Position numbers and translations under genes: made by a program
The notes under the pieces: model-generated
Database searches by the model: none
What the model was told of the DNA's origin: nothing
The model's input: the letters and a program-made list of their open reading frames with translations, nothing else
Origin: Escherichia phage 4E10
Sequence record: OQ689735.1
DNA: 64,000 nt
Reading direction: 5' to 3' (one strand)
Shown here: positions 17,407 to 64,000 of the stretch, piece after piece
Layout: each line of letters opens with the position of its first letter
Numbering within the stretch: the first letter of the stretch is position 1

Positions 17407-17571
17407 TTACTCTTCTTTTTCTTTAGATTCCTCTTTTTTCTTTTTAGGAATCTGTTCAGGACCTTTATTTACTACAGCACCTGACGTTGTTCCAGTAGAG
17501 ATATTTTCAGGACTACTACCTGAATCTCCAGCGACCATATCTTCTTTGATAAATTCTTTATATGTTTTCAT
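17407..17571 (-). CDS. mini-ORF with internal-protein-like N-terminus
   Basis: 54-aa ORF below cutoff; N-terminus MKTYKEFIKED resembles the IP capsid-targeting sequence MKTYQEFIAE; low-complexity tail. Confidence 0.4.
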   Translation of the reverse strand: MKTYKEFIKEDMVAGDSGSSPENISTGTTSGAVVNKGPEQIPKKKKEESKEKEE

Positions 17572-59392: not shown

Positions 59393-59451
59393 GTTATTCT
59401 CCTCTTAACTGATAGAAAAATTATACCACAGTCAAGAGGAAAAGTAAACAG

Positions 59452-59772
59452 TTATTCTTTAAATCTAATCAATTTATTCATAGACTTTGAAACTTCTGCA
59501 CGGACCTCATGTAAGTTTTTAAGCTGTTCAAGACGCTGCTCATAATAAGCAATTTCATCTTCTTCGAGACAGTCCTGTGAATCTTCTTTAAGATAGCGTG
59601 CATAGTCCTGGAAAGCGTTACGGATTACTTCCTGGAAATCATCAAGACTTTGAATTTTCTTAGGAGCAGCAGATACACGACGAGGGGCAGTATAATACTC
59701 ATAACCAAACCCTGCGCTTAATTGAGCCATTAGTATTTTTCCTCTGGTTGGAACACTGCACGACAAGCCCAC
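59452..59772 (-). CDS. hypothetical protein (vs.3 position)
   Basis: 106-aa ORF; start uncertain. Confidence 0.45.
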
Positions 59773-60032
59773 ATACTGGCTTCTTTGAGTTTCGTTTTAG
59801 CAATAGTTAACTGATCGAGGCTTTCAGCATAATTCTTTGCGAATTCATAGTCTTCACAATTATCTAGTGCTTCCCAGAATTCGTCATATAAAGCGTCAAA
59901 GATAAGTCCTAAACGAACTTCAGCATCTTTGATAGCATTCACTTTACCGATTTTCTCTTCAGTATGTGGCTTATAACCCTTAATGTCTTCAATCATATTT
60001 GACTTCCTCACCAGTACATAAATCGTATTCAA
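59730..60032 (-). CDS. hypothetical protein (vs.4 position; possible Acb2-like)
   Basis: 100-aa ORF; start may be internal (MIEDIKG); function by position only. Confidence 0.4.
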
Positions 60033-60210
60033 CTAAACGAATAGGTTCATGAATGCCATATCCCTGAACAGAAATTTCTGTCGTAGGATAAATTCCACTA
60101 ATATCACCCATATTCCACGCTTCATTAAATTGCTGTTCGCCTGAATTACTAAACCATTCTGCGAAAGCATTTAGCACATCTTTAGAACCTTCAATAATTA
60201 TCTTTGCCAT
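59989..60210 (-). CDS. small hypothetical protein
   Basis: 73-aa ORF. Confidence 0.45.
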   Translation of the reverse strand: MAKIIIEGSKDVLNAFAEWFSNSGEQQFNEAWNMGDISGIYPTTEISVQGYGIHEPIRLVEYDLCTGEEVKYD

Positions 60211-60572
60211 TACAGACTCTCAGTAAAGGTACGAGCAATAACGTCGCGCTGCTGTTCCGGAGTCAGAGAGTTAAAGCGAACTGCATAACCGGATACACGG
60301 ATGGTCAGCTGCGGATATTTTTCCGGATGCTTAACTGCATCTTCCAGAGTTTCACGACGCAGAACGTTAACGTTCAGGTGTTGACCACCTTCAATTTTAA
60401 CTGTAGGTTGTGGCTCAATTTCAATTTCACGGGCATGCAAACCATAGAAAATTTCTGGGTCTACAAAAGAGTCCTCTTTAAAGGTTTTAGAGACAATAAT
60501 TCGTGCTTGAATACCATCTTCAAAATAAATAGTACCTTTATGTGTGCCTTCAAGAATTTGATATGCTTTCAT
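60210..60572 (-). CDS. GrcA/YfiD-like autonomous glycyl-radical cofactor
   Basis: 120-aa ORF; C-terminus [25 protein letters not shown] matches the glycyl-radical motif; visibly GC-richer, host-like codon usage. Confidence 0.7.
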
Positions 60573-60579
60573 ATAAACC

Positions 60580-60960
60580 TCAATTAGAAAATAAATTTAT
60601 CCAAGATTGTTCTTTAATTAAAAATGGCTCAGAATCATATGCCATTAAACTTTGCGTAATTAATCCTTTAAAAGGTCCATCAATAAATTCCATGGTAAAA
60701 TATGGAATTTTATTCATTAGCCGTGCATTAGGAGCAGTGCACAAAACTCTGCATCCTTTGAATACGCCTTTTTGTAATTTGTATTGCTTGGGATAAAATT
60801 CGCTCAAAATGTTATTATTTGCCAAAATTTCAAAATGATTTACCAATTTATTTTTAATAGTTTTTGGCGAAAAATAAAGATATTCGAAAAGCTGTGTATC
60901 TGTCATCATTGCATTCCGATTACGAAAAACTGCGGACGAGTAATACCACCAATGCAACAT
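60580..60960 (-). CDS. hypothetical protein
   Basis: 126-aa ORF. Confidence 0.5.
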
Positions 60961-61445
60961 TTACTATTACAGCAGTAGTGTACAGTGTCAATATGGACAC
61001 TATAAATCTTATCCATATCAGGAGATTTGACAGGCTCATCAATTATATACAAAATTCGCGAAAGCGATAAACCTCTGAACTTGCTTCCTTTATTACCAAT
61101 AAAACTGCGCACAGAATCAGTAAATAAACGAAAACGTATATCATCATTAGAATAACGCGAAAATTCCTTTTTGATGTTATTTGCAGAAATTTTAGCGTAA
61201 GCTGAAGTATTAGAAAGAACAATAACTGTTCCGCCATCATACAGCCAATTAGCAGCAAAGTTAGTCACAGCAATTGATTTGCCGGATTGACGTCCACCAT
61301 CTATGCGAAGTGTGCAGTACTGTTTGAGTAAGTCTTCAAATGGCGGGGTATATTCGTTTTTACAAATTTCTTCTACTCTAGCATCAGAATGGTGTGTAAA
61401 AGCATTCATCAGGGATAGATAAGGACCAGTTAAAAATGTTCTCAT
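60906..61445 (-). CDS. P-loop-containing hypothetical protein
   Basis: Track ORF 60906..61493 trimmed to ATG after GAGAGAA (MRTFLTG...); GGRQSGKS P-loop-like. Confidence 0.45.
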   Translation of the reverse strand: MRTFLTGPYLSLMNAFTHHSDARVEEICKNEYTPPFEDLLKQYCTLRIDGGRQSGKSIAVTNFAANWLYDGGTVIVLSNTSAYAKISANNIKKEFSRYSNDDIRFRLFTDSVRSFIGNKGSKFRGLSLSRILYIIDEPVKSPDMDKIYSVHIDTVHYCCNSKCCIGGITRPQFFVIGMQ

Positions 61446-61586
61446 TTTATTCTCTCTAAATTTGGGCCATTCCGTGGCGCATGAATTGTCCATTTCTGTA
61501 TTTACCCATTACCGCACTCAGGCTCGACCTTATTACAGGTTGGCGGGAATCCCTCACAAAATCATGAGGTCCAGGTTGTTCCCATA

Positions 61587-62060
61587 TTATTTGAATGATT
61601 TGACGTACTGAATAGAACCTTTACTATTCACAAAGGCAATTTTACCATTTTTGTTATACATGGTAGCAGTACGCTGATAGCCATAAGTTTGTTTACCAGA
61701 TTGATAACCAACTAATGCAAAATTATCTTCGCCCATTTTATTCTGCTTAGCGCGGATACGTTCATGACCGTGCGCCATAAGAACCTTAGCGTCGCCAGTT
61801 GCAATGGATCTACGAGTTTTTTCATCTTCAACTGTATTAACAAAGTCGTCAAATGAATCAAATTTAGCATGAGATTTATTATACAGTTTTCCATCTACTG
61901 CATAATTATATCCCTGTACATCCATCTCAACTTCTGTACCATCATCCAATACAGCAGTGATTTTTTGACCTTTTTTAAATTTCAAAAGATCAGTAAAAGA
62001 TTCAGCAATAATTTGAGAATTAATAGCTGCTTCAGTAATAAATTCTTGATATGTTTTCAT
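61587..62060 (-). CDS. head internal protein (IP family)
   Basis: 157-aa ORF; N-terminus MKTYQEFITEA is the IP capsid-targeting sequence. Confidence 0.7.
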   Translation of the reverse strand: MKTYQEFITEAAINSQIIAESFTDLLKFKKGQKITAVLDDGTEVEMDVQGYNYAVDGKLYNKSHAKFDSFDDFVNTVEDEKTRRSIATGDAKVLMAHGHERIRAKQNKMGEDNFALVGYQSGKQTYGYQRTATMYNKNGKIAFVNSKGSIQYVKSFK

Positions 62061-62069
62061 ATGTTTCCT

Positions 62070-62486
62070 TTAAATGTAAATATTTTTACCGTAATACTTG
62101 TACCAATGTGGTTTCATTAAAATTTTTTCATCAAGTCGTTGTTGACTCAATTTAATAGCTGATTTGCATGGATTATAATCATTTTTCCATTCTGCTGGAA
62201 TATCGCTGATGTCAGGAACTTCAGTATCTTTTATACTAAACCCGCGTTTTAAGCATTCCGTTATAATGTCTGATTGACGCTTTCGCAAAAATTCTAACTT
62301 ATCGTAAAAGAAAGTAACATGACCAGAACCTAAAATAAACTCGGAAGATATTTTAAAATCTTTAACCCGCTTACCATTTGCCACATGTTTACGAACTATA
62401 CCAAAAACACGCGGCAATTCACGGTATTCTGCGATTAAATGTTGATCAGCAAGTTCAGATACTAAAGTCAAATTAATACGAGTCAT
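62070..62486 (-). CDS. denV: endonuclease V (pyrimidine-dimer DNA glycosylase)
   Basis: 138-aa ORF; matches T4 DenV ([17 protein letters not shown]...). Confidence 0.9.
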
Positions 62487-62545
62487 TTTATCCCTCCAAG
62501 TAACTGTGAATATACTATCACAATTCTAGGAGAAAGTAAACAACT

Positions 62546-63076
<531 letters not shown>

Positions 63077-63532
63077 TTAAAAGAGGTTGTTCATTATTCG
63101 GTAAAGTGAAGGACCCATCACATATTGCCACTGAGTACGAGGAATAAGAGCAAAAGCGTCCATCTCTGGAATCATAACGCCATCTTTATTTTCAAAATAA
63201 GACTCGCAGCGGCAATTTCTAAACATCTCATGCTCTACTGGAATCGTATAGTAAAATAGCTGTAAGTCTTTATTACTAGAATATTTAAATACACCTAGAT
63301 CTTCTAGAAGGTCTGGATTATAATTGCTAAAACCGGTCTCTTCTAAACATTCTCTTCGTGCTGCATCTAATGCGCTTAAATCAGAATTTTCTACACGGCC
63401 CTTTGGAATATCCCAGCGATGTGCCATCATTCCAGGCTTACGAGAACCAGTAACTCGTCCCATAAATAGGTCTTTATCTTCTGTCATAAAGATAATACCA
63501 GCTGATAATGTTTTCATTTTAATTTCCTGCAT
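63077..63532 (-). CDS. nudE: Nudix hydrolase
   Basis: 151-aa ORF; Nudix box GRVENSDLSALDAARRECLEETG; start may be the internal ATG near 63517. Confidence 0.8.
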   Translation of the reverse strand: MQEIKMKTLSAGIIFMTEDKDLFMGRVTGSRKPGMMAHRWDIPKGRVENSDLSALDAARRECLEETGFSNYNPDLLEDLGVFKYSSNKDLQLFYYTIPVEHEMFRNCRCESYFENKDGVMIPEMDAFALIPRTQWQYVMGPSLYRIMNNLF

Positions 63533-63912
63533 TCAGTGATAAAGTTATTTAAATTTTGAGTATATTTCTTTTCATCAAAAATCTTTTGCTGCCTACGTAA
63601 CCGCCATGGCATTTCAATGAACATGTACCATATTCCTGATAGTATTGCTGCTGTAAAAATATTAACAAGTATGGTTAAAAGAGCCCAATCTCCTATTCTA
63701 TCCATTGGATTTTTTATAAAAAAGTAAAACACAAACGATGATATAGGAAGACTAATGATATACCACAGAATCATAATCTTATTTGTAAACCAATCAGCAT
63801 TTGTTAACTTAGCGCGACCGTTTTGAATACATACGAACTTATCATCTGTTATAGTAGATGGCTTAGCTGCTTGATATCCCATTCTAAACTCCCTAATCAA
63901 CAAATTTTTCAT
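63514..63912 (-). CDS. membrane protein (e.2 position)
   Basis: 132-aa ORF with two hydrophobic helices. Confidence 0.5.
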   Translation of the reverse strand: MKNLLIREFRMGYQAAKPSTITDDKFVCIQNGRAKLTNADWFTNKIMILWYIISLPISSFVFYFFIKNPMDRIGDWALLTILVNIFTAAILSGIWYMFIEMPWRLRRQQKIFDEKKYTQNLNNFITECRKLK

Positions 63913-64000
63913 ATCTTCTGAACAACCATTCCAGTCAACTCTATCAACTGAAATGCCATCATCCCCATCATCTAAATCATACCAGCGAGTTTTTAAAATC

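Follow-up and report, generated by a model that had tools for sequence, protein, structure and literature searches.

In T4 the internal-protein (IP) genes ipII and ipIII lie between denV and the lysozyme gene e, as the initial annotation of this DNA stated; we confirmed the order vs.8-denV-ipII-ipIII-e on NC_000866. The arrangement differs in the window, the 64,000-nucleotide stretch of Escherichia phage 4E10 (OQ689735.1) analyzed here: the interval between denV and e (62487-62545) is 59 nt long and free of ORFs, and an ORF with an internal-protein N-terminus sits on the other side of denV, next to vs.8 (Table 1). We asked which protein this ORF encodes, how it came to occupy this site, and what its product would do for the phage. 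A 157-residue protein with a capsid-targeting N-terminus had been reported between vs.8 and denV and no IP gene between denV and e, and both statements hold. The description of a single IP gene is right for this locus and does not extend further, since the ipI locus lies beyond the end of the window (T4 ipI is about 9 kb past denV) and the gene 61.1 homologue within the window also starts with a sequence resembling a capsid-targeting sequence (CTS).

Table 1. Features of the ip4 region and the gene 61.1 homologue, in window coordinates
Feature	Position	Strand	Remarks
Ip4 (IpIV) internal head protein gene	61587..62060	-	157 codons + stop; ORF, Pfam, PHROG, T2/K3 identity
Capsid-targeting sequence MKTYQEFITE, residues 1-10	62031..62060	-	ends in I-x-E motif for prohead protease gp21
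Variable linker, predicted disordered, residues 11-20	62001..62030	-	ends I18-A19-E20/S21
Conserved folded core (predicted), residues 21-157	61590..62000	-	basic; AlphaFold2 and alignment
Shared IP-cassette leader with Shine-Dalgarno AAATATTTACATTTAAAGGAAACAT	62061..62088	-	supplies last four codons and stop of denV
Downstream cassette flank, homologue of T4 denV-vs.8 spacer	61494..61586	-	breakpoint at stop codon
vs.8 homologue	60906-61493	-	PHROG 1488
denV (endonuclease V), divergent allele	62070-62486	-	Pfam Pyr_excise, PHROG 1183
T4-early-promoter-like block	62497..62545	-	GTTTAC 62541-62536, TAGTAT 62517-62512; upstream of denV
Lysozyme e	62546-63040	-	
Two T4 late-promoter motifs TATAAATA	63054..63074	-	upstream of e
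nudE	63077-63532	-	
Gene 61.1 homologue	17410-17571	-	54 aa, just upstream of primase gene 61

Identity and abundance of Ip4

Homology searches identify the product of ORF 61587-62060 (translation beginning MKTYQEFITEAAINS..., also given as MKTYQEFITEAAINSQ...) as Ip4 (IpIV), an internal head protein long known from T2-type phages. The Pfam family DUF7412 (PF24183) matches Ip4 over its full length, residues 1-157 against profile positions 1-158 (E 5.7e-96, 319.4 bits against a gathering score of 27), and PHROG 3155, 'internal virion protein', matches with E 6e-102. The protein is 100% identical to T2 IpIV, which carries the UniRef name 'IpIV internal head protein', and 99% identical to UniProt Q38388, 'Ip4 [Enterobacteria phage K3]', the sole structural match in BFVD (TM 0.96). 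K3 Ip4 and the IpIV proteins of T2, RB51, ime09 and Kha5h are one and the same protein, of equal length, 99-100% identical and encoded at the locus adjoining vs.8; T2 differs in lacking denV, so that its Ip4 gene directly follows the e-proximal promoter block, and otherwise shows no substantial difference.

The exact Ip4 sequence occurs on 459 contigs, and a tblastn search was positive in 470 phage records, 290 of them at 99% identity or more, including T2, teqskov and JK1 (annotated Ip4). The window itself belongs to Tequatrovirus (nearest record ECO95 1-6-1, 99.9% over 4.6 kb), and Ip4 is kept from this genus to T4-like phages of Klebsiella, Salmonella and Serratia. Between the window and T2 the gene shows 15 synonymous and no nonsynonymous changes, between the window and teqhal 17 synonymous and none nonsynonymous, and dN/dS against a Klebsiella phage is 0.14; Ip4 is under strong purifying selection. 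The family matches, the number of records and the purely synonymous changes relative to T2 and teqhal together argue that the ORF did not arise by chance.

The literature and hundreds of GenBank records already cover this gene, together with its name, class, gene order and behavior as a cassette. The initial annotation implied novelty, which does not survive comparison, as Ip4/IpIV had been named in K3, T2, RB51 and others; the non-T4 arrangement is not unusual and is in fact the commoner one (Ip4 in 470 records, IpIII in 261 and IpII in 198). The K3 entry comes from Repoila et al. 1994 (EMBO J 13:4181), who reportedly described ten IP ORFs in T-even phages, distributed over two loci of high polymorphism. 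Repoila et al. 1994 is cited for 'at least 10' Ips by Silas et al. 2025 (PMC12373910).

The e-to-vs.8 hotspot and its junctions

The polymorphic IP loci are two, one from e to vs.8 and one beside 57B, and Ip4 belongs to the first. We found this hotspot in at least five forms, in line with the earlier claim that IP loci are plastic: e-ipIII-ipII-denV-vs.8 in T4, e-Ip4-vs.8 without denV in T2, e-denV-Ip4-vs.8 in the window and RB51, e-denV-IP(105 aa)-Ip4-vs.8 in teqhal, and e-denV-vs.8 without any IP in Bas37. The Klebsiella Jiaodavirus FRZ284 carries e-Ip4-IpIII-IP-vs.8, and in both teqhal and FRZ284 CTS-bearing proteins other than Ip4 also occupy the hotspot. Ip4 is one of the interchangeable internal-protein cassettes of the T-even phages, placed here in the e-to-vs.8 hotspot of a T2/RB51-type Tequatrovirus, and denV behaves as a further optional cassette of the same hotspot, absent from T2 and present in Bas37 without any IP. 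Using a 141-nt probe at a coverage of at least 80%, we counted the denV-Ip4 junction in about 151 records, including RB51 (Ip4), ime09 (Ip4), Kha5h (ipIV), teqskov and PhiZZ30. An Ip4 homologue was sought in Bas37 for its HIDEN-SEQ fitness data and is absent there: bas37_0232 is vs.8, followed by a gap of 146 nt and then denV.

Alignment to T4 and T2 places the joints of the cassette. Window positions 59400-61587 match T4 (L002 1249-3443) at 96.6%, and this homology ends exactly at the T4 denV stop codon; positions 62497-64000 match the T4 block preceding ipIII at 94%. Between them, the 60 nt at 62029-62088 match the T4 ipII leader and CTS (L002 4188-4247) at 96.7% and the ipIII counterpart at 95.7%, the leader DNA of Ip4 being identical to that of T4 ipII. 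Compared with T2, the window differs in one respect only: denV stands between promoter block and leader. The denV allele is also the exception in a region that is otherwise 94-97% identical to T4, sharing 77.9% of nucleotides and 107 of 138 residues (77.5%) with T4 denV, whereas the products of e and nudE match at 157 of 164 and 150 of 151 residues. Its end is borrowed as well: AAATATTTACATTTAAAGGAAACAT stands in place of the last four denV codons, and the C-terminus reads YYGKNIYI here and YYGKAIYA in T4. From these alignments the shared leader and CTS evidently served as the recombination joint. The overlap of leader and denV and the breakpoint at the stop codon are new details of the junction, both consistent with cassette shuffling, and the junction offers a clean example of IP cassettes, together with denV, apparently shuffled through a shared leader.

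Two observations concern the annotation of flanking genes. In FRZ284 (vB_KpnM_FRZ284), the gene directly upstream of the Ip4 homologue (L007 2506-3000) is annotated 'putative sulfurtransferase protein' and reads as a homologue of the T4 e lysozyme (MDIFGMLRIDEG...), so the public entry appears to be mis-annotated. At the other end of the hotspot, the annotated N-terminus of T4 vs.8 (MRDSRQPVIRSS...) corresponds to window positions 61445-61557 on the minus strand, where the window has a separate 33-aa ORF with a GTG start (61456-61557), in a different frame from the vs.8 ORF of 195 aa. The vs.8 PHROG profile begins at MRTFLTG, residue 17 of the 195-aa ORF. Either the window is frameshifted here or the start annotated in T4 lies too far upstream.

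Leader, folded core and expression signals

Aligned with T4 IpII, IpIII and gp61.1, the Ip4 leader is invariant at M1, K2, T3, Y4, E6, F7, I8 and E10, and it has both the MKT(Y/F)xEF..E pattern of the family and the (L/I)-x-E site of gp21 (ITE/A). Leader, locus and the shared leader block all place Ip4 in the class of capsid-targeted internal proteins to which it had been assigned at the outset. In GenBank X04567, residues -10 to -1 of T4 IpII and IpIII are annotated as a removed leader, and by analogy the Ip4 leader would be cleaved in the same way. The linker behind it closes with another [LI]xE sequence, I18-A19-E20/S21, whose E20 is invariant in the enteric family; T4 IpI has its sole [LI]xE site at ITE19/A. 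This is a possible second gp21 site, and with two such sites the mature N-terminus of Ip4 may be Ala11 or Ser21.

The remainder of the protein is predicted to fold. A first AlphaFold2 run on 13 close homologues gave a pLDDT of 50 and was discarded; with three remote homologues added, the model reached a pLDDT of 83.8 and a pTM of 0.78, with residues 1-20 disordered and a confident alpha/beta core (pLDDT below 50 at residues 10-18 and about 84-95 over 21-157, with a dip at 121-130). A search with this core returned no solved-structure match. The family is small: a profile search run exhaustively over 1.84 billion representatives yielded only 7 proteins, three of them remote homologues with the variant or degenerate leaders MNFEQFLNE, MNFKDFLNE and MVTFKEIYN; one of the three is encoded on a T4-like contig between 57B/Acb1 and vs. 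Among 13 Ip4 homologues 64 alignment columns are invariant, and the mature protein is basic (pI about 9.1, 22 Lys+Arg in 147 residues). We also considered Ip4 as an enzyme and rejected this reading: H64, H99, D47, E111 and D112 are invariant in the enteric family and not conserved in the remote homologues, and the residues that stay invariant out to the latter are Gly, Lys, Asn, Gln, Tyr and Thr, with no typical catalytic acid or histidine among them.

On its coding strand the gene includes two A6 runs within codons 28-34 (window 61960-61990; AAA TTT AAA AAA GGT CAA AAA ATC). Several complete phage genomes carry 39-aa Ip4 alleles (MKTYQEF...KFKKRSKNHCCIG), which is the product that a frameshift by one extra A in the first A6 run would be expected to give. 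For the ipIV repeat of T2, a 2025 preprint that deals with contingency loci in phages gives a slippage of zero (PMC12633550). The short alleles, and the complete lack of the gene in T4 and Bas37, are indirect evidence that Ip4 is non-essential for growth on laboratory hosts, and it is therefore dispensable.

The gene 61.1 homologue offers a separate observation on leaders of this kind. It begins MKTYKEFIKE/D (MKTFKEFIKE in T4), an almost perfect capsid-targeting leader that includes an I-K-E site; behind this come an acidic peptide rich in Gly and Ser and a tail of Lys and Glu. It is conserved across 1175 phage records, those of Acinetobacter phages among them, and no Pfam family matches it. 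The gene 61.1 product may be an unrecognized internal peptide that is packaged or processed.

Ip4 starts 9 nt after the denV stop codon, which its Shine-Dalgarno sequence overlaps, and a motif search that included this gap found no promoter for Ip4 itself. The early-promoter-like block upstream of denV is homologous to the blocks upstream of T4 ipIII and T2 Ip4, with the homology boundary at window 62497 in both comparisons, and is a putative promoter by its motifs. Within the scanned interval 60500-63950, the pair of TATAAATA motifs before e are the only late motifs upstream of Ip4, and nothing resembling a minus-strand terminator separates them from the gene; these motifs would give read-through transcripts covering e, denV and Ip4. 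In T4 itself, the promoter block upstream of ipII includes an inverted repeat (L002 4256-4291) of 14 nt without mismatch (TCCTAGAATTGTGA / TCACAATTCTAGGA); the repeat surrounds the -10 region and could be an operator or a recombination site. The repeat is absent from the window block before denV (62494-62539), where the counterpart is degenerate.

Type IV restriction and other candidate roles

Each of the four internal proteins characterized so far inhibits a type IV restriction enzyme. IpI* (T4 Ip1) blocks the GmrSD of CT596; GmrSD-ECOR21 is the target of Ip2 and GmrSD-ECOR17 that of Ip3, neither protein protecting against the other's enzyme, and all proteins of both Ip loci have been proposed to target GmrSD variants (Silas et al. 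2025, PMC12373910). In Bas37 the ipI locus encodes Bas37_0260, a CTS protein that inhibits McrBC (HIDEN-SEQ preprint 10.1101/2025.11.20.689424), and Ip3 is active from the cytoplasm without its CTS (Srikant et al. 2022). Ip4 shares with T4 IpII and IpIII the e-to-vs.8 hotspot, the CTS MKTYQEFI-x-E, the upstream leader and Shine-Dalgarno DNA, and a basic mature protein; with the small injected protein IpI*, an N-terminal targeting leader and the I-T-E gp21 motif; and with Bas37_0260, the character of a CTS-bearing Tequatrovirus cassette protein, although Bas37_0260 sits in the other IP locus. The likeness stops at the mature domain: compared with IpI*, IpII and IpIII, the three sequences to which the initial annotation had pointed, mature Ip4 shows no similarity of sequence or fold (best BLASTP E 0.026, in a comparison of just three sequences).

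The two groups also part in activity. Unlike IpII and IpIII, which inhibit GmrSD enzymes, ip4-10 gave no reproducible inhibition when expressed against the GmrSD variants that are active on T-even phages (PMC12373910 section 10, Suppl. Fig. 9), in a panel made up, for ip4, of 8 active GmrSD systems alone (PMC12373910). T2 carries exact Ip4, lacks Ip2 and Ip3, and is restricted by GmrSD-ECOR21 and GmrSD-ECOR17 (PMC12373910). Because the GmrSD panel is negative and the Ip4-carrying T2 is still restricted, an anti-restriction role of Ip4 is an analogy and not a result. The suggestion that the protein is an injected anti-restriction factor therefore fits the pattern of T4 Ip1-3 and Bas37_0260 and has met with partly negative results in these GmrSD data, and the expression in restricting hosts that had been proposed for it is already done in part (Silas et al. 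2025). Our literature search found no functional study of Ip4, ipIV or DUF7412 beyond Silas et al. 2025 and no open-access proteomic report naming Ip4.

We favor the following course of events. Ip4 would have no promoter of its own and would probably be transcribed together with denV from the early-promoter block on the downstream side of e; late transcripts would reach it by read-through that starts at the two late promoters before e, with translation from the conserved IP leader and its Shine-Dalgarno sequence. MKTYQEFITE would then carry the protein into the scaffolding core of the prohead, where gp21 would cut it after Glu10, with possible further trimming after the invariant Glu20, and the basic folded core of about 15-16 kDa would stay in the head with the DNA and be injected together with it. 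In the host, Ip4 would most likely neutralize one specific first-line nuclease directed against DNA with glucosyl-hmC; this would be a type IV restriction enzyme outside the set of GmrSD variants tried so far.

We put the whole chain, from CTS-directed packaging through gp21 processing and injection to inhibition of a modification-dependent nuclease, at about an even chance of being right. In its favor stand the identity with T2 IpIV and K3 Ip4, the CTS positions invariant with IpII and IpIII, the leader removal annotated in X04567, the shared leader DNA, purifying selection, the disordered N-terminus ahead of a confident core in the AlphaFold2 model, a basic character like that of IpII and IpIII, the CTS proteins that fill the hotspot elsewhere, the expression signals, and the four out of four characterized IPs that inhibit type IV enzymes. 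Against the chain count the unrelated mature domain, the negative ip4-10 screen, the restriction of T2, the absence of the gene from T4 and Bas37 and the 39-aa alleles, and Ip4 is near-invariant within Tequatrovirus and 65-70% identical across genera, unlike the usual fast-evolving inhibitor of an arms race.

Other readings keep parts of this chain and replace the rest. Ip4 could be injected and act on a defense other than a type IV enzyme, such as another early-acting system that senses or cuts incoming DNA, or on a host factor; we consider this unlikely, as the IPs whose targets are known so far all hit type IV enzymes and ip4 has been tried on GmrSD systems alone, 8 active ones. A bolder version, in which Ip4 is an injected inhibitor of a defense outside the GmrSD family with a new mechanism, would explain the negative GmrSD screens and builds on the most widespread IP of the hotspot, its conservation across genera and a core without a solved-structure match; it too strikes us as something of a long shot. 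Ip4 might alternatively be mainly structural, a DNA-associated head-core protein serving in charge neutralization, packaging or ejection with no specific host target. Its basicity would suit such a role, as would its rank as the commonest IP of the locus without nonsynonymous change among Tequatrovirus alleles and the contacts of T4 internal-protein lysines with DNA phosphates (review PMC3012670). T4 Ip2 and Ip3 are, however, equally basic and yet specific inhibitors, and the complete lack of Ip4 in T4 and Bas37 and the short alleles in complete genomes mark it as dispensable for head assembly, so that a mainly structural role seems to us improbable.

A vestigial CTS, leaving Ip4 as an early cytoplasmic protein that is never packaged, would agree with its position behind an early-type promoter block without a late promoter of its own. 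T4 ipIII, however, also lacks the late motif TATAAATA within the 95 nt that precede its start, and the CTS and I-x-E site of Ip4 are conserved across genera, persisting as the variant MNFxxFLNE in remote homologues, which makes a vestigial leader very improbable.

As a discovery Ip4 matters little, and anti-restriction is the field's standing hypothesis for all internal proteins. Its interest lies in its being the commonest predicted injected protein of the hotspot, carried by the classic phage T2, with a target that is one of the blanks left in the arms race between T-even phages and type IV restriction; the search for that target is eased by a confident model, a candidate second processing site and a list of enzymes that Ip4 does not block.
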